Source of the DNA: Alphaproteobacteria bacterium | GTDB lineage: Bacteria; Pseudomonadota; Alphaproteobacteria; Bin95 | NCBI GenBank assembly: GCA_963665325.3 | Contig: CAXXWS020000002.1 | Location: 480,001 to 544,000, forward strand | Direction: 5' to 3' | Length of the DNA: 64,000 nucleotides | Part shown: one piece after another, positions 3-34,918 of the stretch | Layout of the letters: the number at the start of each line of letters is the position of its first letter | How positions within the stretch are numbered: the first letter of the stretch is position 1 | Translations under genes and position numbers: made by a program | The notes under the pieces: generated by a model | Database searches by the model: none | The model's input: only the letters and a program-made list of their open reading frames with translations | What the model was told of the DNA's origin: nothing

Positions 3-3000
3 GCGGTCACCGTCACCGGGCTCGAAAAGCAGCAGGCCGAGGACGGCAGCACGCAGGTCCGCATCACGGCCCGAACGCAGGACAATCGAACGGTCCGCTT
101 CGAGCCCGGCGACATCCGGAACTGGACCGGCGAGATCGCCATTGACTACGCCTATGCGGCGACCTGCACGACCGCCCAGGGCCTCACCATCGACGCCGGC
201 TTCCTTTTGCTGGACGAAGGCATGGCGCGCGAGACCACCTATCCGGCCGCCACCCGGCACACGCGCCACCTGCAGGTCGTCGCCGACCGCCTGCCGGTCG
301 CGATCGCGATCGCCGGCGCCACGCCCGACGGCGAGCCCGGCCATGAGGTCTCCGACGAGGAGATCGTCGCCACGCTCGGCCGGCTCTGCGGGCGCTCGCA
401 GCCCAAGCAGGCCGCGATCGACTACATCCTGGCCGCAAACCAGGCGGACATGCCGCTCCAGGGCGAGCTCGAGATCGGGCGCGAGCCGGTCCCGGCCGCC
501 GAAGCCGCCAACGACGCCGTCCAGCCCGGCACGGCCGGCGCCGGGCCGCGCTCTCCGGGCGAGCCTCCCGGCGCGGCCGTGCGCCGGCATGCCGACCGCG
601 CCGCCGTCCAGCGCATCCTTGCGGAGGCGAAGCGCCAGATCCCCGAGAACGCCGCCCGGGCCGAGGCCGTGGCGCTCGCCGCCGACATGGAGGAGGTCGA
701 AGAGGACTGGGCCCGGATCGCGGCCGATCCCGCCCCTTCACCCGACCTCGCGCCGCAGGTGCAGCACGCCCTCGACCGGCATCGCCAGGTCCTGCGTCGC
801 GTGCGCGTGTTCCTGCGCAACCGCAACCGCACGCGCGGCAAGAGCGACAGCCGGGACCGAACCCGCGTCTCGGACCGGGGGCTCGAGCGGTTCGCGCGGC
901 TCAGGCGCAACATGCGGGGCCGCTGGCGCGACACCCTCAACGAAGCCAAGGCCGAACGGACCGCAGAGGCGCTCGACCGCGACTGGAAGGAACTCCGGTC
1001 CCGGGTCGGCCCCGATCCGCTCGCATTCCTCGAAGAGCCCGAACATGCGGTCCTCGTCCGCCGCACCGCCGAACTGGCCGGGAGCCGAACCGCCGCCCCC
1101 GCGACGGCTCGCGACTGGCGCGCCTTCCTCGACGAACACTTCACCTCCCTGTCGCTCGAACTCTGGCGGGTCTGGAACGCCGCGCATCCGGGCGCGCCGG
1201 AAAGGAACCGGTCGGCCCGGGATGTCGCTGCCTACCGCACGCTTCTCCGACAGGCCCATACGACCCTGGCGACCTTCCGCTGTCTCACCGGCCGCAACAA
1301 TGCGCTGGAACTCCAGCGCTGGCGCGACTTGCTCGTCCATGCGCCTACCTACCGGGAGGCGCTCGGAAGCCTCGCCCGCTCCCTGGACAATGAAGAAAAG
1401 GACCTCCGGCGCCGGGAGACCAAGCTCGCAGGCTCCACCCTGCCCACGAGGCGGCTGGCCGACCACATGGCGAACCTCGGCGCCGCCGCCCGCCTTCCCA
1501 GCTTCAGGGAGAGCCAGCGCAAGACGATCCGCCGCTTCGTCCGCCAGCACCGCCAGGCGCGCAAGGAGGCTGGCGTCACGCGCACCGACGCGCCCTGGCC
1601 GACCGATGGGCAGATCGAACGCCGGATCGAGACCGGACGCGAACTCCGCGAGGGCTGGCGCCGGGTCCGCGAAGTCACCCGCGACGATCCGCTGGCCGCC
1701 CTCGACTACCTCGAAGCCCGGTTGGTGATCGAGCGCTCCGCCGAACAGGCGCTGGACCCTTCGCTCGACGCCGATACCGCGAGGGAACGCACGGCGTTCC
1801 TTGTCCGGGAGCTGCAACAGCTGGACACGGCGCTGGAGGCGGCCCGGACCGCCGTCCGCGCGCCGACCGCCTCCCCGGGATGGAGCCATGCGGAGTTCGA
1901 GCAATATGCCCGCCTGTGGAACCGCGCCGCCGCGTTCACCCGCACCCTCACGATGCTGCCCGACGGATTCGCCGTTCCGAGCGTCCCCGGAGGCAAATGG
2001 CAGGACTGGCTGAGCGCCACGCCGAACACGCGGGAGGCGTCCGACATGCTGCTGCGGTCCATACGGGCCGAGGAGGCCGCGATCCGCGACCGCGAAACCG
2101 TCCTGCCCGGTTACACCCTGCTGACCCGGCGCCTCCACGACCACATGGAAACCCTCGAGGCGCTCACCGGACCCGGCGAAGACACGGCCTTGAGGAGCGA
2201 CGGCGAGCGTCGCGAGCTCCGGAACCTGCTGGAGTCCTGGGTCGAGGCGCGCGAGGCCGCCGGCGTCACCCGCACGGACGTCCGATGGCTCTCCGACAGC
2301 GAAGCCGATCAGGCCGCCGCAAGGAGGGCCGAGGGACGCGCCCTCAACAAGGCATGGCGGGACTTCAGAACCGGCGATCGTCCGGTCCATCCGGCTCTGC
2401 TCGACCAGCCGGACCACGGCAGTCTCATCGCCCGCACGGCCGCATTCGCCCTGGATCTGGAGGACAGACGCCCCGAAACCGGACGGAAATGGCGCGAGCT
2501 TCTCGAGATGCACCTCCAGCAGCTTGCCCGCCAACTGAACGACGCATTCGAGAGCATAGCCGGAAGCAGCGACCGTAGCGCCCGCAATGTCGAGCAGTTC
2601 AACCGGTATTTCCGGCTGCCCCGGCGCGTCGACGCCCTCGCGGACATGCTTGCGGCGGTGCCTCCGGCCATGACGCAGCCGGTCGATTTCGACCTGCAGG
2701 ACTGGAAGCGCCGCCTCGCTGAGGCGCCCTCAGGCGACGATGTCTATGAACGGCTTGTCGAGGACCTCTTCGAGGAAGAGCGTATCGTCACGGAGCGGGA
2801 GGACGGCCTTCCCGGTTCGACCCTTCCGACCCGCCGCCTTGGCGAACATATGGCCGTGCTCGAGGCGCTGATCTCGAGCGACGTGGTGGGCTCCGGGGAC
2901 AAGGAGTATTTCCGGGGCCTCCTGGACGCCCATCGGCAGGCCCGGGCGGACGCGGGCGTCACGGTTGCAGACCTGCCATGGCCCGACACGCCCGAACTCC

Positions 3001-3974
3001 AGGTCGAGCATGACTATCGACGCATTCGCAACGCCGTCGAACGGGCCGCCGGCCGAGCCAGCGACAGCGCGCTCATCAACGAGCCCGGCATCGAGGCTCT
3101 CGGGCCCGAAGCAGCACGCCTGCTCGCAACGCCCTGGCTTTCCGCCGACGGCCGCCGCTACCTCGATAAATTCCAGGACCTGATCGACACGGAAATCCGG
3201 CAGCGCAACGATGTTTCCGGAACCATCGAAAGGGCCCGCGCCCATCTCCAGGAATACCCTGCAATTCTCGACCGCGCGCTTGCCCCCAAACCGCCTGAGC
3301 CCACCCCGGACGACCAGGACACCCGCCCGGGCCTTTTCGGCCGCGTCCGCCGGCTTCTCGGCGCCGAGGACGACATTCCCGCCCGCCCCGCGGATCCGGC
3401 CCCGGCGCCGCAGGCGCTCAACGATTTCGATCCGGACTACCGCAAGTGGGATGTCCTGGCTGAGCAACTCGTCAAGAGGTTCCGGCATTGGCGCTCGGCA
3501 GCCCAGCTCGCCCGCCGCGATTTCGTCGAGCGCCGATGGATCGACATGGCCGATCTCATCGCCGAGTTCGAAGCGATCCGCAGCGCCGCTCGCGACCCGA
3601 AGGCCGAACCCTATCGGATCGAAACCCCGGATGCCGGCGCCTTCGCGGCCGCAGACCAGCGCCACGATCCCGACCGCCTCGCGACCCTGCTGCGCGACGT
3701 CATCGGGCCCGAAGACGAGCGCAGCAGCGAAGCCGTGCTCGAACTCGCCCGCAGGAACCGCGCCTGGCCCGACGAGACCCTCGCCGTCTTTCGCCGGCAT
3801 GCCAGGCAGGCAGCCGCCGCCGGCGAAACCCGTTCCCTGTCGCGGCTCGCGGCCGGCCTGCCCAGAAACCTCACCCGGAGCCTCACGAACCTGTCGGAGG
3901 TGACCTGGCAACATCAGGGCGAGGACATAGACCGCCGGCGAGAGCGTGAGCAGGGATACGACCGCTCAATGTGA
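3..3974 (+). CDS. traA: Conjugative relaxase-helicase (TraA-like), 5'-truncated by window edge; helicase C-terminal motifs followed by long repeated helical region
   Basis: Frame is open from position 3: ...IDYAYAATCTTAQGLTID...TYPAATRHTRHL matches SF1/RecD-like helicase motifs V/VI of TraA relaxases; basic tail RRREREQGYDRSM typical of T4SS substrates; transfer genes in same window. HUH domain not visible. Confidence 0.75.
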   Translation, partial: AVTVTGLEKQQAEDGSTQVRITARTQDNRTVRFEPGDIRNWTGEIAIDYAYAATCTTAQGLTIDAGFLLLDEGMARETTYPAATRHTRHLQVVADRLPVAIAIAGATPDGEPGHEVSDEEIVATLGRLCGRSQPKQAAIDYILAANQADMPLQGELEIGREPVPAAEAANDAVQPGTAGAGPRSPGEPPGAAVRRHADRAAVQRILAEAKRQIPENAARAEAVALAADMEEVEEDWARIAADPAPSPDLAPQVQHALDRHRQVLRRVRVFLRNRNRTRGKSDSRDRTRVSDRGLERFARLRRNMRGRWRDTLNEAKAERTAEALDRDWKELRSRVGPDPLAFLEEPEHAVLVRRTAELAGSRTAAPATARDWRAFLDEHFTSLSLELWRVWNAAHPGAPERNRSARDVAAYRTLLRQAHTTLATFRCLTGRNNALELQRWRDLLVHAPTYREALGSLARSLDNEEKDLRRRETKLAGSTLPTRRLADHMANLGAAARLPSFRESQRKTIRRFVRQHRQARKEAGVTRTDAPWPTDGQIERRIETGRELREGWRRVREVTRDDPLAALDYLEARLVIERSAEQALDPSLDADTARERTAFLVRELQQLDTALEAARTAVRAPTASPGWSHAEFEQYARLWNRAAAFTRTLTMLPDGFAVPSVPGGKWQDWLSATPNTREASDMLLRSIRAEEAAIRDRETVLPGYTLLTRRLHDHMETLEALTGPGEDTALRSDGERRELRNLLESWVEAREAAGVTRTDVRWLSDSEADQAAARRAEGRALNKAWRDFRTGDRPVHPALLDQPDHGSLIARTAAFALDLEDRRPETGRKWRELLEMHLQQLARQLNDAFESIAGSSDRSARNVEQFNRYFRLPRRVDALADMLAAVPPAMTQPVDFDLQDWKRRLAEAPSGDDVYERLVEDLFEEERIVTEREDGLPGSTLPTRRLGEHMAVLEALISSDVVGSGDKEYFRGLLDAHRQARADAGVTVADLPWPDTPELQVEHDYRRIRNAVERAAGRASDSALINEPGIEALGPEAARLLATPWLSADGRRYLDKFQDLIDTEIRQRNDVSGTIERARAHLQEYPAILDRALAPKPPEPTPDDQDTRPGLFGRVRRLLGAEDDIPARPADPAPAPQALNDFDPDYRKWDVLAEQLVKRFRHWRSAAQLARRDFVERRWIDMADLIAEFEAIRSAARDPKAEPYRIETPDAGAFAAADQRHDPDRLATLLRDVIGPEDERSSEAVLELARRNRAWPDETLAVFRRHARQAAAAGETRSLSRLAAGLPRNLTRSLTNLSEVTWQHQGEDIDRRREREQGYDRSM

Positions 3975-4427
3975 TCGCGTCGGCCCGGCCGGAGGTGCGC
4001 CCCCGGACCCGCTTCCTCTTCTCCCATTGCGATGTGCCAGGTCGTCGACCGTATAGCGATCGAACACTGCGAAGAAGGCTTCCTCCGCTTCCGTGAGAAT
4101 GGACCGGTAGCGGCAGCATGAGGCGGTCCGGCACGCGCCGGCCCCGTCGGGAAAGCACTCGGCGAGCGGTATGGAACTCTCGACATGACGCACTATCGCG
4201 CCAAGCGAAATTGTCCCTGGCGGACGAGCCAGCCTGACCCCGCCGTTCTTTCCGCGAACCGTCTCCACGTGCCCGGCCCGTCCCAGCTGCCAGACGACCC
4301 TGGTCAGGTGGCTTCGGGAAATCCCGCAGCACTCCGCGATCTCGCGGATGGTGGAGAGGCGCTCTTCGTATACGGCGAGATACACGAGCGCCCGCAGGGC
4401 ATAGGCGGTATGCTTGCTCAGCCGCAT
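3966..4427 (-). CDS. nsrR: Rrf2-family transcriptional regulator (NsrR-like)
   Basis: MRLSKHTAYALRALVYLA...TIREIAE...SHLTRVV..L...G.VETVRGKNGGVRLA; C-terminal Cys cluster (ECF..ACRTASCC). Confidence 0.85.
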   Translation of the reverse strand: MRLSKHTAYALRALVYLAVYEERLSTIREIAECCGISRSHLTRVVWQLGRAGHVETVRGKNGGVRLARPPGTISLGAIVRHVESSIPLAECFPDGAGACRTASCCRYRSILTEAEEAFFAVFDRYTVDDLAHRNGRRGSGSGGAPPAGPTRSH

Positions 4428-4812
4428 TGCCTGCCTCCGGCGTGGCCCGACGAGGGCATGGACTCACGGCACCATCCTCCTCAGCTTGAGCGCAAGCGCA
4501 TTCATGGTCCAGCGCCGAATGCTGGCCCCGATCGGCGGATCGACTTTCCTTCGCGGTCTGTGCCAGGCTGCTGCTGCGCGGTGCTGAACCTCCAATGGGC
4601 GCCGCGTAGCGCCCTGGCGGAGGTCAACGACAATGCTCCGGGCGCCGCCAGGGCGCTCCTCATGAAAGCCGGGTGACGACACCCCGATCGGGAGGAGTCT
4701 TCCAGCCGCCCGATCCCCGGAAACTGGAGGCGCATCCAGGCCTGTGTCAAACTGCGATCCCGTGCCGGAGCGGCGCGGTTCGACCGTTATCGACCAGTAT
4801 GGGAACGCCGCC

Positions 4813-7800
4813 ATGTCCGATTACGACAGTTCCGATGGAATAGCTGCCGGCACGGCCGATATCATCGACAATCTGACGCCCGGCGCCGGTCCCGGCTTCC
4901 GCGAGCATGACGGGCGCGAGGCCGGCGATGTCGAGATGGCCCGCACCGGCGTCGACCTGCTGTTCGCCTCGATCGGCTCGGGGCTTTGCCCCGACGGCTC
5001 CGTCCTTGCCGACGACCGCGACCGCCTGCTCTGGAACGCCGTCGAGCAGCTGCGCAGCCATGTCGGGCGCCTGGAAGCGCGGCTGGAGAGCCGTCTTCGG
5101 GAACCGACAGAGGAGCAGCGCGAACAGCGCGCCGGCGACAACGAGGCCGACGGCGGAGAGACCGACGTCCTGCTTGCGCAGGGGGCCGAGAACACGCAGC
5201 TGCAGCGCGACATCCTTCGCCGGACCCTCGACCATGCGCTGAACCGCTATGGCGAGGTCGTGGGGCGTCCGTGGCTCGCGCGCCATGGCACGGTGAATAC
5301 CGGCGCGTCGGAACACGGGCTCGGCAACCAGGTCGACGCTTCGGCATGGTTCGCCGCGCGGGAGCTCCGGGAACCCGCTCCCAATATCGTGACCCATGTC
5401 CGCGAGGCCATGGAATATGCGGACAGGAAGCGCGCCGCGCTCCGCGATGCAGCCGGGGAGCAGGAGCTTCTGCCCCGTCTCGAGGACCTGACCTTTCCCT
5501 TCGACGCCGGCGGCCGCGAAGAGACGGCGGCTTCCGTCGCCGGCATGTTCCAGGCGCTGGAGCTGATCTTTCCCGACGGGACCCAGCTCCAGGACGAGCG
5601 CCGCGCTGGCGCCTGGCGCACGGTGCGCATGTTCGACGCCGGCGCCATCAGGGCCGCGGAGGACGCGCTCCGGCGCATGACGGACCATCCCGCGCTCGGG
5701 CCCGACCCGGCCCCGGAGGCCGCGGCCCTCTTCGACGAAGGCACCCGGGAGTCGATGCTGCGCGTCCAGCAGCTCTCCAGGGCGGCCGATGCGGCCGGCG
5801 CCCTCTATTGCGAGACCACAGGCGAGGAAGAGTGGAAACGCCGCGACCCCTCCATGACGGCGGCCGGAGGTCCCCGCGACCGGACGTCCCTTACCGGCCG
5901 GCACTACGCGGCCGCCGGGCGCGCCGTCGCTCTCGGACATCCCGCGCCGCATCAGCTCGACGGGCCGAACGTCGTCATCGTCGGCAGTCCCGATCTCGAC
6001 ATGGTCCGGGACCGCGAGACCGTGGAAAGGCGGCTCTCGCAGCTGCATCGGCAATATCCGCAAATGGTGCTGCATTACGGCGCCCGGCTGCGCGACGCCG
6101 GAGGCGTGGACCGCCTCAAGGGCATCGACGCCATCGTCCACCGCTGGGCCACCGGCCGGGGTGTGCCGCTTGTTCCCAACCCGCCTGTCTGGGACGCGGA
6201 GAACAAGCGCTTCAACCTCCATGCCCGCGACGACGCCTGGATCGCGACGAACCCCGACCTGGTCGTCGATTTCGGCGGCACCGGCAATGCCCACATGCGC
6301 TTTCTTGCGCTGGCCCGGGAGAAGGGCCTCGGATCTCCCGGCCAGCATGCCGGTCCGCGCAGCTACGAGACCGGCAAGGCCTGCGTCTTCCGGAGCACGC
6401 GCGGCGAGTGGGGCATATTCAACAACTCCGCGCGCCTGCCCGAACCGATCTCCGCTGCGGACCGCGCCTTCGCGACGTCGGAACATCTCTACCAGGCAGC
6501 CAGGTTCCGCCGATCGCCCGAAGTCCAGGCCCGGATCGCCGGCGCGCGCTCCGCAGTAGACGCCGCGAAAATCGGCAGTGACGAGACCAACGGGCCCGAT
6601 GCCGACTGGAACCGCCGCCGCGTCGACGCCATGCGCTGGGTCATCCGCATGAAGCGCGAGGCCCATCCCGGGCTTGTCGATGCCGCCCTCCAGAAGACCG
6701 GCGACCGGGAGATCGTCGGATCCTCGGACGAAGACCGGTTCTGGGGGGCGCGGCCGGAGGACGGCAGGCTGGTCGGCCAGAACACTCTCGGGCGCCTCTG
6801 GATGGAGCTGCGCCAGCAGCTCCGGGAGGGCGATCCGCTGTTCCGCGCGTCGGCCTGGACGAATCCCCTGACGCCCGACCCCCGCTCCGCCGGCGCCGTC
6901 GCACACACTTCCGAAGCGATCGTCACGGAAGAACAAGCCGGGACATCCCGGTCCGATGGCGAGGCCCGCATCCTTCGCTGGGCCGGCATCGGCTCCCGTG
7001 ACACGCCCGCCGACGTCCTGAACGACATGACCAGCCTGGCTCGCCGTATGGCGGACTCAGGTTGGCACCTTTTCTCTGGGGGCGCCAAGGGCGCTGACAC
7101 GGCATTTGCAGCCGGCACTCCGGCCGACCAGCGAACCATATGGCTTCCCAAGCCGGGTTTCGAAGGCCTCCGTGGACCCGACTGCCGCGTTCTTTCTCCG
7201 GATCGCGCGCAGGAATGCATGGCGATCGCCGAGCGACTTCACCCCGCCTGGGACCGGTGCGACGACTTCGCTCGCAAAGCCCATACCCGCAACGTCGCCG
7301 TTCTCCTCGGGCCGAACCTGGACACTCCCGTCGATGCCGTCGTCTGCTGGACCGAGGACGGAAAGATCAAGGGCGGTACCGGCATGGGCCTCCTGATCGC
7401 CCGGGAGGCGAATATCCCCGTCATCAACCTCGCGACAGAATCCGCAGGGTCCGCATGGGAACGGCTCCGGCAGCTGCAGCACCGGCCGCCTGCCGCACGG
7501 ACTGCGACCGCCACGACATCCGCGACCGCAACCAGGTCGCGGGGTCCCGATCCCGACCAGCGCCGGGAGTTCCGGCAGCAACGGCTCCAGGCCAGCTTGC
7601 GCGGGATGCTGCACGGCCTGCCCCTCAAGCGCCTGGACCGTCCGGTCCTGGCCGAACTCCACCGTGAGAGGGCCCGCACCGCCGCCGAGGAGCGCCTCGA
7701 CAGCCTGTCCCGCGACCAGCTGCACGACGCCCTCGAGAGCATCGAGGAGCAGGCCGGGCAGCTGCGCGCCGAATTGGGCGCCGGCGGCCGCTCCGGCCCC

Positions 7801-10107
7801 CATGCGGCCGAGACGGGCAAGCAGATCGCCGCGCTGGACGCCGCCGGCGACCGCATCCACGCGGTGCTGGCCGAAAAGAACTTGGCGGCGCTTCGCGAAC
7901 AGGAAGGCCTGGACACCGAAATCGCGGCGGACGCCCAGGAGCGCGTCATGTCCGTCATGCTGTCCGTCTGGAAGCTCGCCTCGGAAGGCCCGCTCGCCAT
8001 GGAGCCCAATCTCCTTCTCGGCGCGGCCGCCGGCATCTTCATTGGCGAGGCCGGCAAGGTCGGCGTGGACCTTGCCGACCGGACGCGCATCCGCTCCGGG
8101 CATGCGCTGGCGCATACGCCGGGCTCCGAGGAGGAGACGCTCGCGCTGGCAAGCCGCGGCCCCGGCCAGGATCCCAAGAAGTCCGGCGAGGCCTTCGAGC
8201 ACATGCTGACCGACGTCGAAACCAAGGAACGCGACGAGCAGTACAAGGCCCTTGCGCATCGCAGTCGCCTGCTCGACGTCATGGCCGAGACCGCTCAGAC
8301 CTTCGCCCAGGCGAGCCGCGTGGACATGCGCCGGCAGGCCGCCGCCCGCGAACGGCGCCTGACCGGGCACCTCGAGGGCGTGGCGTCCGGACCGGCCGTC
8401 CAGCGCCGCCAGGACGAGCTTCGCGCCGCCCATGGCGAGCTCATCGACAACATGTTCGGAAACCTGGCCGCCCTCTGCCCCGTGGACCATGTCTCCGCGG
8501 CCGATCCGCATCACGGCTCGTCCTCGGACCGCGACCGGCTCCTGGCCCGCTTCGCGTCCCTCTTCCGGGAGGTCGATCGCAAGATCGGGAAGCAGATCGA
8601 CCGCATCTCGGGCACCGGCAAGGACCCACGCAATACCGGCAGGCTCCGCGAAGCCGGCGCCTGGCTACGCGAGCTCGCCGGCCATGCGGAACAGGCCATC
8701 GGCAAGCATACCGGCCGCGCTCCGCTCCTCTGGAACCGGCGGGAAACGCAGACCGCCGGGGAATGGCTGATGGCACGCCAGCGCCGCGCACTTCAACTCG
8801 AGAAGGCCGAGGCGCTCGCACCCGACGGCCGCCATGTCGCCATCGTCGGAGGGCGCGACCTACACAGCCGCCATGCCGGCCGCATCGCGGAGCTGCTCAA
8901 CCGCGAGCGCGCCGCCAATTCCGGCGAGCCGCTGGTCCTGCACTGCATCGCCCGGGACGGCGCCGGGCGCTACGCCGCCGAATGGGCCGCCTCGCACGGC
9001 GTCACCTGCGTCACCCACCGCCCGCACCGCTACTCGCCGGCGCATCTCAGGCGCCGCGACGACCTGGTTCTCGGCATCCCGCCCGACACCGTCTGGAACT
9101 TCGGCGCCGAAGGCGGCCATGAACGGGCCGCAAGCATGCTTCTCGACCGCGCGAGGGAGCAGGGCGACGGCATCGATATCCGCGACATGGCCTCCGAACT
9201 GGAAGGCCCGCTCTCCGGGGATATCGTCATCGAGCCGCGCGAGCAGGTGGAACGGGACTATGCCCGCATCCATTACGCCTGGCAGAAGGCGGAGGCGCTC
9301 GCCGGCGACGGGCCGCTGATCTACCGGGAGGGCGTAGAGGAGCTCCTGCCCGATATCGCCCGCACTCTTGCCAGCCCGCATCTCGCCGGCAAGGAACGGC
9401 GTTTCCTCGACGCGTTCAAGGGCTCGATCGAGAGCGAGGTCCGGGTGCGCGACGAGATCTCCCGCGCCATCGACCGCGCCCGGGACCATCTCGCGTCCTA
9501 CGGGGCGCTGCTGGAGCGGCGCGGACCGCACCAGGCCGGCACGGTGCTCAACGACGTCGATACCGACTACCGCAAGTGGGATGTCCGGGCCGAGCTGATG
9601 GTCCAGACCTTCGACAACTGGTTCGGCACCGGCAACACGGCCCACCGCGAGCACCTGGACCGCCGGCGCCTCGACCTCACCGACCTCGGCGCCGAGCTCC
9701 GCGCCATCCGCAAGGCCGCCCGCGATCCGGAGGCCGAGCCCCACCGGGTCGAGGTCTCTGTCGAGATCGGGGTCCATTCCTGGGACCAGCTCTTCGAACG
9801 CAGGCGTTTCACCGAACTCACCCTGGAGACCCTCAAGCCCGAGGACGAGCGCAGCCCGGAAACCGTCGCCGAGTTCGCCCGCTGGTCCCGGGCCTGGCCG
9901 AAGGAAACCCAGGCGACCTTCAAGACGATCGCGACCGAGGCGGCGCGCGAGAAGGAGCAGCTTCACACCAAACGCCTCGCCGCCGGCCTCCCGCCCGGCC
10001 TCGCCGCCGGCATGCTCCACATCAGCGAGGAAATCTGGTCCTACCAGGGCGAGGAGATCATGAGGCGGCAGGCCGAGCGCAGCCGAGGCATGGGAATGTC
10101 AGCATGA
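4813..10107 (+). CDS. Large polyvalent protein: DUF2493/YspA-like SLOG, NADAR, DprA-like SLOG, second DUF2493-like SLOG, relaxase-like C-terminal domain
   Basis: 1787-aa ORF (4744 possible, ATG 4813 preferred). SLOG: VVIVGS..LHRQYPQMVLHYG..GIDAIVHRWA; NADAR 6361-6830: FATSEHLYQAARF..LQKTGDREIV..DRFWG..GQNTLGRLWMELR; SLOG 6970-7480: WAGIGSRDTP..SGGAKGADTAF..RN..VVCWT..GGTG; SLOG ~8820-9190: VAIVGGRD..LVLHCIARDGAGRYAAEWA. Confidence 0.85.
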   Translation: MSDYDSSDGIAAGTADIIDNLTPGAGPGFREHDGREAGDVEMARTGVDLLFASIGSGLCPDGSVLADDRDRLLWNAVEQLRSHVGRLEARLESRLREPTEEQREQRAGDNEADGGETDVLLAQGAENTQLQRDILRRTLDHALNRYGEVVGRPWLARHGTVNTGASEHGLGNQVDASAWFAARELREPAPNIVTHVREAMEYADRKRAALRDAAGEQELLPRLEDLTFPFDAGGREETAASVAGMFQALELIFPDGTQLQDERRAGAWRTVRMFDAGAIRAAEDALRRMTDHPALGPDPAPEAAALFDEGTRESMLRVQQLSRAADAAGALYCETTGEEEWKRRDPSMTAAGGPRDRTSLTGRHYAAAGRAVALGHPAPHQLDGPNVVIVGSPDLDMVRDRETVERRLSQLHRQYPQMVLHYGARLRDAGGVDRLKGIDAIVHRWATGRGVPLVPNPPVWDAENKRFNLHARDDAWIATNPDLVVDFGGTGNAHMRFLALAREKGLGSPGQHAGPRSYETGKACVFRSTRGEWGIFNNSARLPEPISAADRAFATSEHLYQAARFRRSPEVQARIAGARSAVDAAKIGSDETNGPDADWNRRRVDAMRWVIRMKREAHPGLVDAALQKTGDREIVGSSDEDRFWGARPEDGRLVGQNTLGRLWMELRQQLREGDPLFRASAWTNPLTPDPRSAGAVAHTSEAIVTEEQAGTSRSDGEARILRWAGIGSRDTPADVLNDMTSLARRMADSGWHLFSGGAKGADTAFAAGTPADQRTIWLPKPGFEGLRGPDCRVLSPDRAQECMAIAERLHPAWDRCDDFARKAHTRNVAVLLGPNLDTPVDAVVCWTEDGKIKGGTGMGLLIAREANIPVINLATESAGSAWERLRQLQHRPPAARTATATTSATATRSRGPDPDQRREFRQQRLQASLRGMLHGLPLKRLDRPVLAELHRERARTAAEERLDSLSRDQLHDALESIEEQAGQLRAELGAGGRSGPHAAETGKQIAALDAAGDRIHAVLAEKNLAALREQEGLDTEIAADAQERVMSVMLSVWKLASEGPLAMEPNLLLGAAAGIFIGEAGKVGVDLADRTRIRSGHALAHTPGSEEETLALASRGPGQDPKKSGEAFEHMLTDVETKERDEQYKALAHRSRLLDVMAETAQTFAQASRVDMRRQAAARERRLTGHLEGVASGPAVQRRQDELRAAHGELIDNMFGNLAALCPVDHVSAADPHHGSSSDRDRLLARFASLFREVDRKIGKQIDRISGTGKDPRNTGRLREAGAWLRELAGHAEQAIGKHTGRAPLLWNRRETQTAGEWLMARQRRALQLEKAEALAPDGRHVAIVGGRDLHSRHAGRIAELLNRERAANSGEPLVLHCIARDGAGRYAAEWAASHGVTCVTHRPHRYSPAHLRRRDDLVLGIPPDTVWNFGAEGGHERAASMLLDRAREQGDGIDIRDMASELEGPLSGDIVIEPREQVERDYARIHYAWQKAEALAGDGPLIYREGVEELLPDIARTLASPHLAGKERRFLDAFKGSIESEVRVRDEISRAIDRARDHLASYGALLERRGPHQAGTVLNDVDTDYRKWDVRAELMVQTFDNWFGTGNTAHREHLDRRRLDLTDLGAELRAIRKAARDPEAEPHRVEVSVEIGVHSWDQLFERRRFTELTLETLKPEDERSPETVAEFARWSRAWPKETQATFKTIATEAAREKEQLHTKRLAAGLPPGLAAGMLHISEEIWSYQGEEIMRRQAERSRGMGMSA

Positions 10108-10427: not shown

Positions 10428-10858
10428 CTCCGGGCCCGGACGCCTGCCGCCGCATCCAGTGGTGGCATTGTTCCCGCTGGCGCGCCCCGGCGGCACAGGA
10501 GCCTGGCTTCCCTGGCATTTTCCTTCCCGGAAGTCGTTTCCGGGCCTGTGAACGGTCGTATCGCGACAAGTGTCGATCCTCCGTCACGGGCGATTCTCTT
10601 CCCGGCACAGACAGACGGCACCCATGACAGGCGGCCGGGCTGTTCCGGGAGATGGGATCGTCATGTCGCTGCTCGTCGGTTCCCGTCGCCCCTCGGCCTG
10701 TCATGTCCGGGTCGTGCCGTCCCTTCGTCCCGACAACGGCGCACCGGCGCGAACAGAGGCCTGATCCCATGGATGCTTGCGCGATCATGCATGACGAACC
10801 GGACCTGGAGGTCCGCTGGCAAAGCGGCGAGCCGACGGGTCTTCTGTCGGTTGTCTCG

Positions 10859-11455: not shown

Positions 11456-11460
11456 TCCTC

Positions 11461-20445: not shown

Positions 20446-22488
20446 TCACTCTGCCGCTGCCGGCATGGACGCCGCCGGGCCGAGGCGCTTGCGTATCTTC
20501 CCGATTTCCTGCGCAAGGTCCCGGTCGAACCGGTCCAGTTCCGACATGGCCTCCCGCCGGCGCAGCAGTCCGGCTGCTTTGAGCTTCCGCTCCACATAGG
20601 GATTGGGATCGGCATCGCCTCGCAGCGCGGCATGCTCCCAGTAGCGGGTGATGGCGAGCCGCATGGCGTCCCTCGGGAGCTCCTTGGAGGCGGCGATCAC
20701 ATACTGCTCGTCCGGTTTCATCATCACCAGGTCCTCGGGGCGCACGATGCGCTCCTTGACGAGGTTGCGGCTGTCGCCGGTGGTGACCTTGTTGGCGGCG
20801 AGCAGGACCGAGCGGCCCATGGGCGTGCCGGAGGAGGTCTGGGTGTAGCCCTCGAAGGTGGCGTGGCCGATGGCCTTGGAGACTTCCTCCGCGCCGGCGG
20901 CGTCCGCGCGCGACCAGCCGAGGATCTGGACGACTTCGGAGAGGTCGATCATCTCCTGGCGGCGCTGCTTGCCCCAGCTGCCGTCGATCCCGGAGAGCGC
21001 CTGGGCGAAGGCCCAGAAATGGACGCCGCGCCCGGCGCCCGTCCTCCAGGCGTCCATGACGGGTTCGAGGTAGCCGACGGCCGGCATCTCGTCCATGACG
21101 ACCAGCATGTCCTTCTTCAGAGACCGGCGGGCGGCGACGGCGAACGGGATCGCGATCCAGAGCCTGAGCCAGGGGCGCGCCGCCTTGAGGACCTCCTCCG
21201 GCACCACGACGAAGATGTCCATGTTGCCTTCGGCCAGGTCGTGCGGATCGAATGTGCTGGCCGCCGTCTGCGCCTGGATCTTCGGATGCGCCAGGAACTG
21301 CATCTGGTTGGCGATCGTGGTGTAGTTCGAACCGCTCTCCTGCTTGCCGATGGCCTGCTCGGACTCCATGGCGCGGTGCGCGAGCCCGCCGGCGAACATG
21401 TCGCCCTCGAGGATCTGCGCCATCAGTGCGCTGCGCCTGTCGGGACCGGCCGAGAGGTTGTCGAACACGTGGGCCAGGTTCCGCTTCTCCTTCTCCGCCC
21501 CATAGGCCGCCCAGGCGATATGGCCGGAGATCAGGCGCTTGGCGCTCTCGTGGAAATGGCGGCTGTTGCCGCCGTCGTTCGCGGGCGGCGTGAGCAGGCC
21601 CTGGACGAGCACATCGACATCCTGGACGGCCTTCTCCTCGCCGCGCAGGAAATCGAGCGGGTTGTAGGTGTGCTTCTTCGCGAAGCGCGGCAGGTGGCAA
21701 TGGGGATGCTGTTCGCGGTGGCGGTCGATAACGCCATAGGGGTCGAGCAGGATGACCTCGCGGCCGAGCTCGCGCCGGCGGCGGGCGACGATCGGATAGA
21801 GCTCGCCGCGCGGGTCGATGGTGACGGTCGAGCCCTGCCAGCCGCGCCCGTGGGGGGCCAGCATGTTGGCGGCGATGAGCGCGCCCTTGCCGGTGCGGGG
21901 CGGGGCGATGGTGACGGCATGGCCCTCGAGCGGCCAGACGGCGAGCGGGGCGCGGCTGCCGGGCCCGGTCTGGCCGAGCAGGATGCCGTCCTGGCGCCGC
22001 GCGAGCTTCCGGAGATGGCGCGCGCCCATGAGCTTCGAGGCGCCGTGGAGCTCGGACTTCGACCGCCTGCGCCTGGCGATCCGCCCGGCGCCGGTGAGCG
22101 CGGTCAGCAGCGCTACCAGCCAGAGGAACCCGAGCAGGGGCGCGATGAGCAGCGGCGCCGCCAGCCGGAACGCGTCGATCGCCGCGCTGCCCTTGGCCAG
22201 CGCCAGGACCCCGCCGAACTCGCCGGCGAGCAGGAACGGCGCCGTGTCGATCGCGATCGACATGGCGGCGATGGCGGCCGTCGGTCCCCAGACGCCGATC
22301 TTCCAGCCGAGGCCGCCGCGCTTGAGCTCGGTGAACAGCAGCACGGCGAGCGAGGCCGCGGCCATGCCGGCAAGCGCCCAGCCCCGCAGCTCCGGATCGG
22401 GCCGTTCGGTCCAGAGCCACCAGACGAGGCCGGCGCCCGGAATGCCGGTCGCCAGCGCCAGGCCCAGATGGGTTGCAAATCCGCCCAT
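20446..22488 (-). CDS. virD4: Type IV coupling protein, VirD4/TraG family
   Basis: N-terminal TMs; LHGAS; APPRTGKG Walker A; IDPRGE; YNPLDF; VMDEMP Walker B; GGAAGGA RBS. Confidence 0.9.
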   Translation of the reverse strand: MGGFATHLGLALATGIPGAGLVWWLWTERPDPELRGWALAGMAAASLAVLLFTELKRGGLGWKIGVWGPTAAIAAMSIAIDTAPFLLAGEFGGVLALAKGSAAIDAFRLAAPLLIAPLLGFLWLVALLTALTGAGRIARRRRSKSELHGASKLMGARHLRKLARRQDGILLGQTGPGSRAPLAVWPLEGHAVTIAPPRTGKGALIAANMLAPHGRGWQGSTVTIDPRGELYPIVARRRRELGREVILLDPYGVIDRHREQHPHCHLPRFAKKHTYNPLDFLRGEEKAVQDVDVLVQGLLTPPANDGGNSRHFHESAKRLISGHIAWAAYGAEKEKRNLAHVFDNLSAGPDRRSALMAQILEGDMFAGGLAHRAMESEQAIGKQESGSNYTTIANQMQFLAHPKIQAQTAASTFDPHDLAEGNMDIFVVVPEEVLKAARPWLRLWIAIPFAVAARRSLKKDMLVVMDEMPAVGYLEPVMDAWRTGAGRGVHFWAFAQALSGIDGSWGKQRRQEMIDLSEVVQILGWSRADAAGAEEVSKAIGHATFEGYTQTSSGTPMGRSVLLAANKVTTGDSRNLVKERIVRPEDLVMMKPDEQYVIAASKELPRDAMRLAITRYWEHAALRGDADPNPYVERKLKAAGLLRRREAMSELDRFDRDLAQEIGKIRKRLGPAASMPAAAE

Positions 22489-22569
22489 GGCGTTCCTTCC
22501 TTCGGAGCTTGTCTGCATTTCCGGTCATGCGGTTGTTCCGGGGGCCGACCCCGACCCGACCCGTCAATC

Positions 22570-22634: not shown

Positions 22635-24956
22635 TCACAGCCCGTCATCCACGGGCGATTGCGGGCCCGGCCCCCCGCGGCCGGTCGGCAGCCGCCCGCC
22701 GCCGCGCCCTCTTTGACCGACCCGCATCGGTCCGACGCGCCCGAACGCGCCCGCGATGCCGCCGCCGAGGCGGTCGGCCTCGCCGTCCCTGCCGTCGCGC
22801 CCGCCGATCCAGTCCATGGCGATCGAGGGCAGGTGGTCGATCAGCTTGAAACAGCCGTTCATCAGCCCGTAGACGGTCATCAGGTAGATCGCCAACATGG
22901 CGAGCCAGCCGAGCACGCCGATCCCGTCCGAGGCGCCGGCGTCGAACACGAGGCCCCGGAACACGTCGTTGAAGGTGTCCATGATCGTGACGAACAGCAG
23001 GTAGCCAGTGACGAGGCCGAACAGCATCAGCACCGGGCGCAGGATCAGCCCGGGCAGGAAGAGCCAGCCCTGGCGGGTCGCCTGCGTGACGAACCCCTCG
23101 CCGCGCACGGTGTGGCCGGCGAGCCAGACCGGCATGGCGAACACGGCCGCGATGACGGCGACCAGCCAGGCGAGCAGGCCGAACAGGAACCGCAGGAACG
23201 GCAGCACCGGCACGAGATAGGCCAGCACCAGGCCGGCCAGGATCATCACGCCCAGTATGGTCGAGATGAAGCTGTCCATGACCTGCCATGCCGCCTCGAA
23301 CGCATCCAGCCCGCCGCCGATGAGCGGGATGGAGTTCAGCAGGTTCGATCCCGTCGCAAGGCCGCCGAGCAGCAGAATCGAGCCGAGCGCCTTGGTGACC
23401 AGGCTGTGTCCGAGCGAGACCAGGTCCAGGATCGGGTTGCCGCTGTCGACCAGCTGGATGTCCTCGATGTCGAGCCAGTCGAAGGAGCCGCGCCCGATCC
23501 CGCCGATGCCGCCGGAGCCGGGCGCGGGGTCCGCGCCGGCGCCCAGCACGGCCGGATATTCGAGCGAGCCGGCAAGCTGCTCGGCCGCCGCGGTCACCGC
23601 CGCGCTCGCCTGCGGGACGCGCTCGCCGAGCCGTGCGGACGGGCCCGCAACCCTCGGAATGCTTCCCGCGCCCAACTGGTATTCGCCGACATGGCGGGTT
23701 ATGGTCATGAACAGCGAGGCCGCGAGCGTCCAGGGGCTGTTCTTCGCCTCCTCCTGCAGCGCCTCTTCGAGCGCGTTCGTGGCCTCGTCCCGGGTCGAGT
23801 CCGCCGCCGCCCTCACGGTCGCCAGATACGTCCCGAGCGGATCGGCGCCGACCAGCAGCGCCTCGATATCGGGCAGCGGGCCGTCATTGCGCACCGTGCC
23901 GGGGGGTGCGGCAAACCATAGGGCCACCCGGTCCGCAATGGCGCCCAGCGCCGGACGGATGGCGTCGAACGCGGCGCTCTGGGCCTCCGCCATCTTTCCG
24001 CCTGGCGTCACGCCGCCGTCGAGGCCCGACAGCCTGACGCTGCCGCACATGCCCTTCGGCATGCCGCCGGCCTTGCCGTCATAGCTTAGCGTCCGGAAGC
24101 CCCGGCCCCTGTAGGCCCTTCTCTGCTGCTGCAGGGGGCTGGACCTCTGCGTCTCCGTCACCTCGACATAGGGCGGGTCGCCGACCTCCCGGGCCGCCAG
24201 GTTGGCGGTGCGCGCGCAGAGTTCCGCCAGGAAGATCCCCGCAATGGCGGCCCGGAGCGGGCGCTGGTGCGGCGCCGGCGCCACCATGGTCCCGTTGCCG
24301 AGCACGTCGCGGGAGAACTCGCCCCAGACGATCTGGGCGATATCGCCGCCGGTGCGGGCGAGCGAGAGCGCGATATGCTGGCCGCCGGAGAGCCCGCCGG
24401 CGAGCGGGACCATGAGCAGGAACGCGGCCACGATCCGGAGCGTCTCCTTGCCGGTGAACCCCCAGCGGCCCCGGCTTGCGGTATCGACCGTGCCGGCCGC
24501 CGTCCACCAGACGAGCAGCACGCCGGCGAGAACCAGGATCGCGCCGTTGTAGATCGTCAGCATGCCGGAGAGCGCGGTATTGTTGCCGGCATCGAGATCG
24601 GAGAGGAACGCCAGCAGGGCGCGTCCCGCTTGATCGGGCTCGCCCGACAGGTCCGGGACGGGCGGTGTCTGGGCCTCCGCCGGCGAGGACCCTGTCCACA
24701 TGGCGAGCGCGGCCATGGCGATCCATATCAGCCCGGCGAGCGCCATGGCGACGCCGAGCCAGCCGAGCGGCCCGCGCGGGCGCGGCAGTCCGCTCTTGCC
24801 GCGCCGACGTGGCAGTCCGCCTCCCGCTCCCTGCGGCCGTCGCAGGCCGCCGGATATCGTGCGCAGCAGGCCGGCGGCGTCCCCGAGCGCCCGCGCGGCC
24901 GGGCCGAACAGATCGGGCAGCAGGATATAGCGGGCGAGGGAGGGACGGCGCGCCAT
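22635..24956 (-). CDS. dotA: DotA/TraY type IVB secretion inner-membrane protein
   Basis: LAYLVPVLPFLRF..W..AV...P.WLAGH, ILRPVLMLFGL, KLIDHLP; polytopic. Confidence 0.88.
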   Translation of the reverse strand: MARRPSLARYILLPDLFGPAARALGDAAGLLRTISGGLRRPQGAGGGLPRRRGKSGLPRPRGPLGWLGVAMALAGLIWIAMAALAMWTGSSPAEAQTPPVPDLSGEPDQAGRALLAFLSDLDAGNNTALSGMLTIYNGAILVLAGVLLVWWTAAGTVDTASRGRWGFTGKETLRIVAAFLLMVPLAGGLSGGQHIALSLARTGGDIAQIVWGEFSRDVLGNGTMVAPAPHQRPLRAAIAGIFLAELCARTANLAAREVGDPPYVEVTETQRSSPLQQQRRAYRGRGFRTLSYDGKAGGMPKGMCGSVRLSGLDGGVTPGGKMAEAQSAAFDAIRPALGAIADRVALWFAAPPGTVRNDGPLPDIEALLVGADPLGTYLATVRAAADSTRDEATNALEEALQEEAKNSPWTLAASLFMTITRHVGEYQLGAGSIPRVAGPSARLGERVPQASAAVTAAAEQLAGSLEYPAVLGAGADPAPGSGGIGGIGRGSFDWLDIEDIQLVDSGNPILDLVSLGHSLVTKALGSILLLGGLATGSNLLNSIPLIGGGLDAFEAAWQVMDSFISTILGVMILAGLVLAYLVPVLPFLRFLFGLLAWLVAVIAAVFAMPVWLAGHTVRGEGFVTQATRQGWLFLPGLILRPVLMLFGLVTGYLLFVTIMDTFNDVFRGLVFDAGASDGIGVLGWLAMLAIYLMTVYGLMNGCFKLIDHLPSIAMDWIGGRDGRDGEADRLGGGIAGAFGRVGPMRVGQRGRGGGRLPTGRGGPGPQSPVDDGL

Positions 24957-32529: not shown

Positions 32530-33558
32530 TCAGTTCTCCCTTGCAGGCTGCGGGATGTCGGTCCGTTCCAGGAAGGCCGCCCGCAGCTCGCGGCCCTCCT
32601 CGGAAACCATCGCGTAGGGAACCCCCGCCAGCCGGTAGGCCCAGCGCCCCGAGGGATCGCGCTCCGCCGCGCGCGGGCCGGGCGAGAGCAGATGCGCCCG
32701 GGTCACCAGCAGCAGCTCGTCGCCGAGCCGCCAGGCGCGCGCCTCGACGCCCTCGACATCGAGGGGAAGGGCGCCGGCCGGGGGATTGCCCGAAAGCAGG
32801 CCCAGCAGCATGTCGGAGCCGGCATGGAAGCCGGCGGCGCCGGCGCCGGCGAGCGGATCGGCATTGGGACCCGCCTTGGCGAGACGCAGGTCCACGCGGA
32901 AGTCGGCCACGCCCTCGCGCTCGCCCAGCATCAGCAGCACCGGCTCGGCCAGGCCCTCCAGCATCACCGAGGCATTGCCCGCGAGCCACCGGGCCTCCGG
33001 CGCGAAATGCACCAGGTGCGGACTGCCGTCCCGCTTCGTCGCGCCCAGGCGCCCGTCCGCCAGCACCGCCTCGATCGGCCAGGGCGCGCCCGTGCGGTCG
33101 AAGAACCCGACCGAGGTCACATAGCCCGCCCTGACCGCGATCTCCGGCACCCCGTCCGCGGCCAGCGGGTCGAGCCTGAGGCGGCGCACGCGCCCGAGGG
33201 CCTTGCCTTCCCGCGCATGGGCCGCCGCCTGCTGCGTCTGCCGCAGCAGGCGCCCCAGAAGCTCGATCTGCTCGCGGGTCAGGGGCAGCCGCGCCCGGCC
33301 CGCCGCAGCCGCCTCCTCGTCCGGCATCGCATGCTCCGGCCAGATATCGCCGTCCGGATCGGGCGCGGCGCCGGTGTTCGGCACGGAGCCCACGTTGGGC
33401 ACGGAGCCGACGTTCGGCCCGGAAGAGGGCGGAGGCAGCGTCTCCGGTCCGGGCGTCGCCGGCGCCTGCGCCCGGGCCGGCGAGGAGGCCGCCGGCATTC
33501 CGAGCGCCAGCAGCGCCGCAATCCCGGCAGCCCGGACCCGCGTTCCTGTCCACGTCAT
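32530..33558 (-). CDS. icmK: IcmK/DotH (TraN) core-complex protein
   Basis: PLTREQI, GYVTSVGFFDRTGAPWPI, GNASVML..L..PV, VDLR...GPNA. Confidence 0.88.
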   Translation of the reverse strand: MTWTGTRVRAAGIAALLALGMPAASSPARAQAPATPGPETLPPPSSGPNVGSVPNVGSVPNTGAAPDPDGDIWPEHAMPDEEAAAAGRARLPLTREQIELLGRLLRQTQQAAAHAREGKALGRVRRLRLDPLAADGVPEIAVRAGYVTSVGFFDRTGAPWPIEAVLADGRLGATKRDGSPHLVHFAPEARWLAGNASVMLEGLAEPVLLMLGEREGVADFRVDLRLAKAGPNADPLAGAGAAGFHAGSDMLLGLLSGNPPAGALPLDVEGVEARAWRLGDELLLVTRAHLLSPGPRAAERDPSGRWAYRLAGVPYAMVSEEGRELRAAFLERTDIPQPAREN

Positions 33559-34217
33559 CGCCGCCCCTCCGCCTTCCTCGCCAGCAGGAAGTCCGCGATC
33601 GCGACGCCCGAGAGCCGTTCGGAGCGCGGAACCCGGACCACCAGCGCCCGGGCCGCGAGGCGCTCGTCCGCCTTCTCGCCCTCGCCCGCGTAGAAGGTCA
33701 GCAGCAGCGGGAACTCGACCTCGTAGCCGACCGCCCCGTCCGGCATGGTCCGGAGCCGCGCCATCACCGGCGCCCCCTGCGCTACCGCCGAGACCACCTG
33801 GCGCTGCCTGCGCAGGCGCTCCAGCACCAGGCTCCGCTCCAGCACAAGCTGCCAGGCCCGGAACCCGTCTTCCGTGAACCGGCCGCGCATTTCCTCCATG
33901 CGGGCCTCCCAGTCGTCGAAGCCGATATCCAGCGCCTTCGTCACCGTCGCCACCGTCCAGGCGAGCATCACGTCCACCTCCATGCCGCCGCCGGCGTCCT
34001 CCTTGCCGTGGATCGGCACCGCCCGTCCGTCCGCGTCCAGCGCCAGCGCCACGGGGACCGTCTCGCGGAGCAGCATCGAGGCGAGCAGAACGGCCGCCGT
34101 CAGCAGCTGGCAGGCCGCGAGGCCGAGCGCGAGCGCCGGCCACGGGCCGTGATGCAGGGGATCGCGCGCCGCCGCCGCAGGCCGGGCGTCCGCGCCGTGC
34201 GTGTCTGCCGCCGTCAC
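33555..34217 (-). CDS. icmL: IcmL/DotI (TraM) paralog
   Basis: N-term TM; W...V..AL...F.D......RFT.DG, EFPLLLTF; GTG start coupled. Confidence 0.8.
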   Translation of the reverse strand: MTAADTHGADARPAAAARDPLHHGPWPALALGLAACQLLTAAVLLASMLLRETVPVALALDADGRAVPIHGKEDAGGGMEVDVMLAWTVATVTKALDIGFDDWEARMEEMRGRFTEDGFRAWQLVLERSLVLERLRRQRQVVSAVAQGAPVMARLRTMPDGAVGYEVEFPLLLTFYAGEGEKADERLAARALVVRVPRSERLSGVAIADFLLARKAEGRR

Positions 34218-34918
34218 CGGCCCGCCTCCCTCGTCAGATGCAGCAGCGCGACCGCGATCCCGGCGAGCCGCTCCGAGCGCGACATGCGCATCACCAGCGC
34301 CTTCGCGCGGAGCGTCTCCTCGACCCGCTCGTCCTCGCCCGCCCAGAAGGTCAGCAGCAGCGGGAACTCGACCTCATAGCCCACGCCCCCGTCGTCGAAA
34401 CGGCGCACCCGCAGGAGCACCGGCGCGCCCCGCGCCACCGCCGAGACCGCCTGGCCCTGGCTACCGACGCGCTGGAATACGAGGCTCTGCTCCAGCATCC
34501 GCCGGTAGCTCTCATAGCCCTCGTCCGTGAACCGCTTGCGAACGCCCTCCACCCGCATCCGGAAATCGTGGAAGCCCATGGTGAAGGCCTCGGTCACGGC
34601 CGCCACCGTCCAGGTGAGCATGAAGCCCACCTCGTCCTGGGCATCTGCGTTCTCCGCCGAGACGATCGGCAGCGTGCGGCCCGCCTGGTCCGTCGCGACC
34701 GCGACATAGACGGTCTCGCGCATGCCCATCCACAGCGCCAGCGCCGCCACCGTCAGAGCCTGGCCGGCAAGCGCGATCCCGGCGACCCGGCGCCAGACGC
34801 GGTGCTGCGCGATGTGGTAGGCCTCGGAGCGCGACACCGCCTCCATGACCGCACCGAGACGGGACGCGCGCTGCGTCTCCCTGCGTACCGTCCGGTCCCG
34901 CCACCAGAGGAGCCTCAT
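34214..34918 (-). CDS. icmL: IcmL/DotI (TraM) paralog
   Basis: TM then YVAVATD..GR..P; WTVAAVTEAFTMGFHDF...FTDEG; EFPLLLTF. Confidence 0.85.
   Translation of the reverse strand: MRLLWWRDRTVRRETQRASRLGAVMEAVSRSEAYHIAQHRVWRRVAGIALAGQALTVAALALWMGMRETVYVAVATDQAGRTLPIVSAENADAQDEVGFMLTWTVAAVTEAFTMGFHDFRMRVEGVRKRFTDEGYESYRRMLEQSLVFQRVGSQGQAVSAVARGAPVLLRVRRFDDGGVGYEVEFPLLLTFWAGEDERVEETLRAKALVMRMSRSERLAGIAVALLHLTREAGR

Follow-up and report, generated by a model that had tools for sequence, protein, structure and literature searches.

How conjugative elements select the proteins that they inject into a recipient together with their DNA is understood for few systems only, and the locus studied here raises the question of how such a protein might be marked. 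It lies in a 64,000-nucleotide stretch from the genome of an uncultured alphaproteobacterium (G000:C3:480001-544000; hereafter the window), where a relaxase and a giant polyvalent protein, the product of the neighbouring gene, share their C-terminal domain, within an element that carries type IVB-like conjugation genes. The source genome (G000) has 5.58 Mb in five contigs (C1-C5) and a G+C content of 67%. The original prediction, made from the sequence of the window, had taken the domain for a BID-like delivery tag of a type IV secretion system (T4SS). Arguing by analogy, we consider a related proposal moderately probable, namely that the domain and its conserved tail form a modular delivery tag of type IVB-like conjugative elements. 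Below, P#### denotes proteins and L### loci, P0001 is the part of the relaxase that lies in the window (3-3974) and P0002 is the polyvalent protein.

A C-terminal domain common to two unrelated proteins

The relaxase is a TrwC/MOBF relaxase-helicase of 2110 aa, of which the window holds the C-terminal 1323 aa (3..3974, plus strand). The full open reading frame (ORF) was taken from the genome, where the gene starts ∼2.36 kb upstream of the window (G000:C3:477642). Its N-terminal TrwC domain (residues 5-275, E 1.6e-57, Pfam) is followed by an AAA_30/SF1 helicase (441-596, E 6e-38, Pfam), the arrangement that defines the MOBF/TrwC type. The second protein (4744..10107, plus strand) comprises 1787 aa counted from a GTG start that is uncertain. 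Pfam places in it a first YAcAr copy (residues 409-484, window 5968-6195), a NADAR domain (562-694, window 6427-6825; NADAR anti-phage-like in NCBIfam, 539-696), a weak DprA-like stretch below the cut-off (746-790, window 6979-7113) and a second YAcAr copy (1364-1427, window 8833-9024). With several effector-type domains and a gene located among transfer genes it fits the description of polyvalent proteins in PMC5512222.

We aligned the two proteins with BLASTP and found a single significant alignment, between P0001 997-1322 and P0002 1498-1786, with 132 of 327 positions identical (40%), 53% positives and E 1e-58; all remaining segments stayed at E ≥ 2.2. The domain pair alone scored 202 bits, far above 200 residue shuffles of the polyvalent domain (best 23.9 bits, mean 15.9). 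The end-to-end similarity of the two C-termini that had been read from the sequence alone is therefore confirmed, as are its positions, with VEHDYRRI from 3003, VERDYARI from 9247 and each copy continuing up to its stop codon (at 3974 and 10107, respectively). The proteins are otherwise unrelated, as had been claimed, with TrwC and AAA_30 on one side and two YAcAr copies, NADAR and the weak DprA-like match on the other. Based on BLASTP and the alignment, the relaxase copy spans 2991..3971 (plus strand, 327 aa, tail ...QGYDRSM), and based on BLASTP and the profile the polyvalent copy spans 9235..10104 (plus strand, 290 aa, tail ...RSRGMGMSA). The relaxase copy contains a Pro-rich insert of ∼40 aa at ∼3276..3395 (plus strand), visible as an alignment gap and in the clade consensus, which divides this copy into an N-part of ∼95 aa and a C-part of ∼190 aa and does not occur in the polyvalent clade.

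Across 34 sequences of both classes 35 of the 290 columns are invariant, among them W115, R163, W221 and the penultimate Ser (S289, domain numbering), and all but one of these 35 precede the last 25 residues. The tail follows the motif ...W-x3-G-x3-x-R-R-Q-x4-(R)G-x-G-[LM]-S-[AY]-COOH, or GYDRSM in the window relaxase. Most tails of the family show Met or Leu at -3 and acidic residues further upstream. The tails had been described as Arg-rich. There are indeed four to five Arg among the last 25 residues, but the acidic residues offset them, and the net charge over the 34 sequences is -2 to +4 for the last 25 residues (mostly 0 to +2) and -1 to +2 for the last 12.

The composition of the domain (53% A/E/L/R/K/Q/M, no Cys) fits a helical domain but proves nothing. 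It matched no PDB sequence at E ≤ 10 and no Pfam family, the sole Pfam match being HTH_31 at 16.7 bits, below the cut-off; neither database thus gave a sequence match to any nucleic-acid-binding family. A feature search of the ESM Atlas with the homologue P0005 (1477-1766) returned TraA-relaxase fragments as the best match (0.84), which is below the meaningful level, and we treat it as a lead only. Of 21 sequencing runs from 8 studies that contain parts of the stretch, none is listed as RNA.

Distribution of the domain

A profile built from seven copies gave 23 matches among 1.84 billion representative proteins. Nineteen of them reach the end of the profile and lie at most 2 residues from the end of the protein, and the other four are partial pieces. 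The long matches comprise the TrwC relaxases P0052-P0054, the YAcAr protein P0049, the helicase fragment P0059 and P0051, which has no Pfam family but bears the three relaxase repeats described below. When the 290-aa domain itself was used as the query, we obtained 39 longer proteins (24 YAcAr/NADAR polyvalent proteins, 14 relaxases or helicases and one without a family) and seven shorter ones (six without a Pfam domain and one with a helicase piece), which look like fragments. All carriers that have a Pfam domain are TrwC relaxases or YAcAr/NADAR polyvalent proteins. The original prediction had named hits limited to the C-termini of relaxases and cargo on similar elements as support for a delivery tag, and this is the distribution that the searches returned. 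As in known modular C-terminal tags of type IV secretion, the domain occupies the extreme C-terminus behind unrelated N-terminal parts. Literature searches turned up no description of it.

Origin and mobility of the domain

In a maximum-likelihood tree of 34 copies, 18 relaxase-type and 16 polyvalent-type sequences separate with a support of 100/100, where the relaxase rows include the fragments P0026, P0046 and P0047 without a Pfam domain and P0048 with only a C-terminal helicase piece. These four had been labelled before the tree was computed by their likeness to the relaxase copy, including the Pro-rich insert (seen for P0046 and P0047). Among elements the domain is 53-94% identical in the polyvalent clade and 39-79% in the relaxase clade. 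The two copies of one element are 38-47% identical, and copies from different elements 36-47%. The two clean clades indicate, at the level of sequence, that the domain in both protein types traces to one old fusion and was then retained, and since copies within an element are no closer than copies across elements, later homogenisation is not apparent.

The similarity could also be a functionless, neutral relic of recombination between neighbouring genes, given that the two genes lie side by side amid abundant mobile DNA (copies and relics of insertion sequences). We regard this as very improbable: 40% identity has been kept, both old clades are conserved over many elements and 35 columns have not changed at all, which speaks for long purifying selection.

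Besides being old, the domain is modular. The body of the L018 relaxase is only 30% identical to that of the window relaxase (628 residues), whereas its domain is 60% identical (317 residues). The L014 relaxase shows the opposite, with 80% identity in the body and just 36-39% in the domain. In either direction, then, the domain travels separately from the relaxase body. The C-terminal region of the 1445-aa TrwC relaxases encoded on C1 and C5 consists in part of three modules in tandem, and the N-terminal ∼120 residues of the domain show homology to the last of these (hhalign with deep alignments, probability 91.7%, E 8e-7; with shallow alignments, 74%, E 2.7e-5; genome search E 7e-5). This homology to other TrwC relaxases makes the relaxase the likely donor of the domain.

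Transfer genes and gene order

The original prediction had assumed a nearby VirD4/Dot-Icm machine, and Pfam and NCBIfam identify one on the minus strand of the window. A type IV coupling protein of the TraG/VirD4 type (20446..22518, 690 aa) matches Pfam T4SS-DNA_transf with E 1.6e-39 and also TraG-D_C; its matches to the NCBIfam TraG/VirD4 models are below their cut-offs. It is followed by a DotA/TraY family protein, a marker of type IVB systems (22635..24956; NCBIfam TIGR04346, 240 bits at a cut-off of 100), two inner-membrane components of the DotI/IcmL family (33555..35107; Pfam T4BSS_DotI_IcmL, E 8e-24 and 8e-23), a T2SSE-type ATPase (36670..38115; Pfam) and an IncI-type T4SS_TraI protein (38425..39612; Pfam). 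Further transfer genes on the same strand encode TrbI-like, TcpQ and shufflon/PilV-like proteins. The conjugation system of the window is therefore type IVB-like (IncI/Dot-Icm-like) and has a VirD4-like coupling protein, which is the presumed receptor of the proposed tag.

We then compared 12 loci from alphaproteobacterial metagenome-assembled genomes. The gene of a domain-bearing relaxase is followed by that of a domain-bearing polyvalent protein in eight of the 12 (L008, L010, L011, L013, L014, L015 and L009/L019), which represent seven places as L009 and L019 overlap. The coupling protein and DotA/TraY come after the polyvalent gene in L009-L012, and L012 has the polyvalent gene with no relaxase in the 5.4 kb upstream. 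The domain is thus linked to a type IV system with a coupling protein, as expected of a type IV tag, with L016-L018 (discussed below) as the exception.

A second candidate tag in the same genome

We scanned 3993 likely genes and ORFs of the genome for the tail pattern, which was derived from these same sequences, and 16 matched: the two window proteins, three neighbouring C1 proteins, a C4 TrwC relaxase (tail ...DQGRSM) and ten that look unrelated. The three C1 proteins (L026, G000:C1:2072706-2085658) have 925, 559 and 1038 aa and different bodies (DUF4326, no family and two YAcAr copies, respectively). Their tails read ...EEQYSMSA, ...EESFSMSA and ...EEGRSMSA, and all three end in a common C-terminal domain of 355-410 aa (35-40% identity, E 4e-54 to 4e-77), here called the C1-type tag. 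L026 lies outside a second type IVB-like gene set (C1:1.97-2.035 Mb), ∼40-50 kb past the end at which the coupling protein of that set is encoded; the set is riddled with insertion sequences, and its coupling protein is 45% identical to that of the window. A scan of genome contigs found the C1-type tag at four loci only. In the source genome a fourth full copy lies at C3:611956-615066, separated from the element of the window by apparently ordinary genes. The same tag ends most of 26 NADAR/DUF4326/Macro polyvalent proteins (P0072-P0097) that were found via the NADAR part of the query, none of which carries the shared domain of the window.

A remote relation between the two domains is possible from their profiles. 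With deep alignments hhalign gave E 1.6e-4 and 3.3e-4 (reversed control 0.19) and with shallow ones E 0.0016 at 16% probability. An iterated hidden Markov model (HMM) search of 17,463 genome ORFs did not join them; its matches at E 0.002-0.009 were all C-termini of relaxases or cargo proteins. Neither the shared domain nor the C1-type tag nor the coupling protein (E ≤ 1e-50) had a match in 72,556 plasmid records. Of 401 genomes sampled from the class, 4 had the coupling-protein type of the window, and three genomes with coupling proteins ∼48% identical to it contained neither the shared domain nor the C1-type tag.

On C1 we also encountered a relic of a relaxase-type domain (L002, G000:C1:1231702-1232409), 80% identical to the relaxase copy of the window over 240 residues. 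It has a TAG just ahead of the tail and a decayed upstream frame, and a fragment of the C1-type tag is adjacent (C1:1228902-1229420). Moreover, ∼20 relaxase-like ORFs of the genome end alike (...GGMDLGL, ...GGGMSMS, ...GGGISA, ...GGGMTP, ...ERDLGL, ...DQGRSM), which points to short terminal motifs as a common trait of the relaxases in this genome.

These tails raise the question of whether the last ∼15-25 residues (...[GSY]-[MLR]-S-[AMY]-COOH) are the whole signal, with the ∼270-aa body as an accessory, for instance a site for a chaperone or an adaptor, or a module that regulates unfolding. Many of P0072-P0097, which have no copy of the shared domain, end similarly (...YSMSA, ...GMSMSM, ...SRGMSA), like tails occur on the three C1 cargo proteins and the C4 TrwC relaxase, and many relaxases of the genome end in tails resembling G-G-[MIV]-x-[LM]-[GS]-x. 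However, owing to the origin of the pattern the scan is partly circular, and ten of its 16 matches look unrelated. The body is also as conserved as the tail in both classes, with nearly all invariant columns inside it, and the known bipartite signals, BID plus tail and XVIPCD plus tail, need both parts according to the accounts in PMC6509941 and PMC8740702. We therefore consider a signal confined to the tail distinctly unlikely and continue with the domain and tail together as the candidate delivery tag.

Comparison with known delivery signals

The prediction had called the domain BID-like. This holds as a functional analogy but not as a statement of family membership, which is not supported at the sequence level: the Pfam and hhalign comparisons were negative, the tail is close to neutral and the machine is type IVB-like rather than VirB-like. 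The Pfam BID model PF17841 (Bep_C_terminal) matched neither copy of the domain, even at E ≤ 10, and nothing in the genome above its cut-off (best 12.9 bits, cut-off 29.5). The model itself was matched in 2 of 401 sampled genomes of the class and in 11 of 301 genomes of another order, the latter with 13 matches that supplied 11 BID regions for an alignment. Comparing these 11 regions with the 34-sequence alignment of the domain, hhalign found no similarity (E 0.83), nor did it for the C1-type tag (0.64), the relaxase repeats (0.72) or the modules of the C1 relaxase (0.43).

The substrates of Dot/Icm systems carry short C-terminal signals with a hydrophobic residue near -3 and a Glu-rich block, which the coupling complex reads. 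The tails of the window family resemble them in their C-terminal position, Met or Leu at -3 and acidic residues upstream, and differ in that they follow a conserved domain of 270 aa, which Dot/Icm signals are not known to have.

The closest parallel in arrangement is VbhT of Bartonella, which shares a BID domain with the TraA relaxase of its plasmid, has its gene next to that of TraA and is translocated in conjugation, as described in PMC5675462. In the BID systems (Bartonella and rhizobial TraA, VbhT and the Beps) a C-terminal domain is likewise common to a relaxase and an unrelated adjacent enzyme (PMC5675462, PMC6509941). These accounts also describe an extreme C-terminal position, a short conserved tail, linkage to a coupling protein and enzyme cargo that acts in the recipient. 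The differences are considerable. BID has ∼100 aa, compared to ∼290 aa for the shared domain, and we found no sequence relationship; the tail of the BID systems is basic and that of the shared domain is not net basic; their relaxase is a MobA/MobL-type TraA and ours is MOBF/TrwC; their machine is VirB-like (type IVA), whereas the window encodes DotA/TraY, two DotI/IcmL proteins and an IncI-type TraI; and VbhT is the toxin of a toxin-antitoxin pair, whereas the cargo here is a polyvalent protein of 1787 aa.

XVIPCD of the Xanthomonas effectors (X-Tfe) is a conserved C-terminal domain on effectors with differing N-terminal enzymes; it binds the all-alpha domain of the coupling protein, and the tail that follows it is required for transfer (PMC8740702). 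This pattern resembles the three C1 cargo proteins with their one C-terminal domain. By its description XVIPCD is set apart, with ∼120 aa, an alpha-alpha-beta-beta-beta fold and a Gln-rich tail, and it is reported on antibacterial toxins of a VirB-type system and is not known from relaxases. The TSA of R1 TraI (PMC6509941) is an internal translocation signal of a relaxase that is read by the coupling complex; it lies within the helicase region and, in the same account, is not found on cargo.

A prediction in PMC5512222 has the polyvalent proteins of conjugative elements accompany the DNA on transfer, and P0002 resembles these proteins in its giant size, its several effector modules in series and its position beside type IV transfer genes. 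The available portion of that paper names no delivery signal, whereas here the sharing with the relaxase provides a candidate; its main text contains no occurrence of YAcAr or NADAR.

Proposed mechanism and points against it

We propose that the relaxase would dock via the domain on the TraG/VirD4-type coupling protein of the element, or on its adaptor, and would then be pumped into the recipient together with the DNA strand. The neighbouring polyvalent protein would long ago have gained a copy of the domain through terminal fusion and, as a consequence, be recruited by the receptor of the relaxase and injected as well. In the recipient its YAcAr, NADAR and DprA-like modules may, early on, protect the entering DNA or help it to become established. 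We infer coupling-protein binding, translocation and the role of the cargo in the recipient from the VbhT/TraA precedent, from XVIPCD and from the reported transfer of plasmid proteins by F-type systems (PMC8406263, PMC11288057).

Several observations weigh against this proposal. In L016-L018 a domain-bearing relaxase of a different lineage has no transfer genes within 10 kb; an IS66 transposase, a cyclase and an SNF2 helicase are among the proteins encoded nearby, and at E ≤ 1e-20 two of the three genomes lack a coupling protein of the window type. The identities within and across elements show no sign of co-evolution between the two copies. The relaxase of the C1 element has no BLAST similarity to the C-terminal tag of its cargo, so that borrowing from the relaxase is not general. 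The polyvalent copy of L008 (L008:10001-10870, domain 94% identical) has an in-frame stop within the shared domain. The nearly neutral tail is unlike the basic tails of VirB/D4-type signals, and the domain is two to three times the size of the known tags (BID ∼100 aa, XVIPCD ∼120 aa), so that it may do more than dock. Finally, the delivery-tag reading is drawn from sequence and analogy.

Some of these points would fit a domain whose site of action is the recipient or the DNA rather than the secretion machine, binding the transferred strand, the relaxosome, a host factor or the relaxase itself, on which the cargo would then ride ('piggy-back'). The large domain with two conserved parts around a variable linker, the relaxases without a nearby transfer machine, the C1 relaxase without the domain of its cargo and the missing co-evolution within elements are all compatible with such a role. 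Yet the domain is always last and ends in a conserved terminal motif, which is typical of type IV signals and needless for binding DNA or a partner. The failure to match any nucleic-acid-binding family in Pfam or PDB also argues against it, and pairing with the relaxase would leave unexplained why one tag occurs on three different C1 cargo proteins. We judge a role of this kind to be unlikely and retain the delivery tag as the preferred explanation.

Relaxase repeats, flanking DNA and neighbouring genes

Outside the shared domain the relaxase contains three tandem repeats of 229 aa (882..2951, plus strand; residues 1081-1770 of 2110) with pairwise BLASTP E values of 1e-20 to 1e-28. An HMM of the repeat finds three copies in the window relaxase and two to three in five related relaxases. 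We rejected the shared domain as a fourth copy: BLAST without composition correction gave E 4e-4, but hhalign only E 0.22. The full relaxase gene is directly preceded by a 461-aa ORF (G000:C3:476242-477624) with 45% identity to the first ∼400 residues of the relaxase, which looks like a truncated second relaxase.

The stop codon of the relaxase is followed by a segment conserved at the DNA level (3975..4660, no strand assigned). Three similar places were found with blastn: C1:1231061-1231698 (90% identity), C1:2035970-2036657 (83%), which belongs to the second transfer element, and L015:3031-3726 (76%). The segment contains a perfect 13-nt inverted repeat (4608-4620/4645-4657) and matches neither Rfam nor Pfam; an oriT or a regulatory function is possible. 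A 163-aa ORF at 4185-4676 is probably not a gene because the reading frame shifts between the DNA copies.

Between the polyvalent gene and the coupling protein the G+C content drops to 0.60-0.66 (10100-20400), compared to ∼0.70. This stretch encodes two serine resolvases (11425-12135, plus strand; 12567-13178, minus strand) and an N6/N4 DNA methylase fused to HNH (14256-15776, minus strand). It looks like an insertion because in L010 and L012 the coupling protein comes ∼3.9 kb after the polyvalent gene. Within the transfer cluster an insertion sequence occupies 53138-56106 (ORFs of 491 and 277 aa, then one of 204 aa), and its two-ORF unit has ∼30 identical copies over all five contigs, many of them in the C1 element. 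In L013 and L014 convergent genes just downstream of the polyvalent gene encode Uma2-family proteins, putative endonucleases (L013:10830-11552 and L014:11245-12198, both minus strand), with tails of like style (...ADRGLSL); they may be further substrates or a chance resemblance.

Implications

By analogy, the domain is a sequence-unrelated counterpart of the BID arrangement in a type IVB-like element of uncultured Alphaproteobacteria. The setting differs from that of VbhT: a type IVB-like machine, a MOBF relaxase, putative anti-defence cargo and no detectable sequence relation to BID. For giant polyvalent proteins, whose delivery had been predicted with the signal left unnamed, the logic of VbhT, that is, sharing with the relaxase, now offers a candidate signal. 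It is conceivable, though we put this forward only tentatively, that type IVB-like alphaproteobacterial elements own a family of modular delivery domains that has no sequence relation to either BID or XVIPCD, with a helical module that recurs in TrwC C-termini and a ...[ML]-S-x-COOH cap. The family would have at least two versions, the 290-aa domain of the window on the relaxase and the polyvalent protein and the 355-410-aa domain that at least three cargo proteins of the C1 element carry, and would mark a whole repertoire of injected counter-defence enzymes. If true, the 'injectome' of type IVB-like elements would be readable from sequence. Confirmation would mean that delivery tags of this kind arose more than once, and would provide a sequence handle to list the injected proteins of elements that are known solely from uncultured bacteria.

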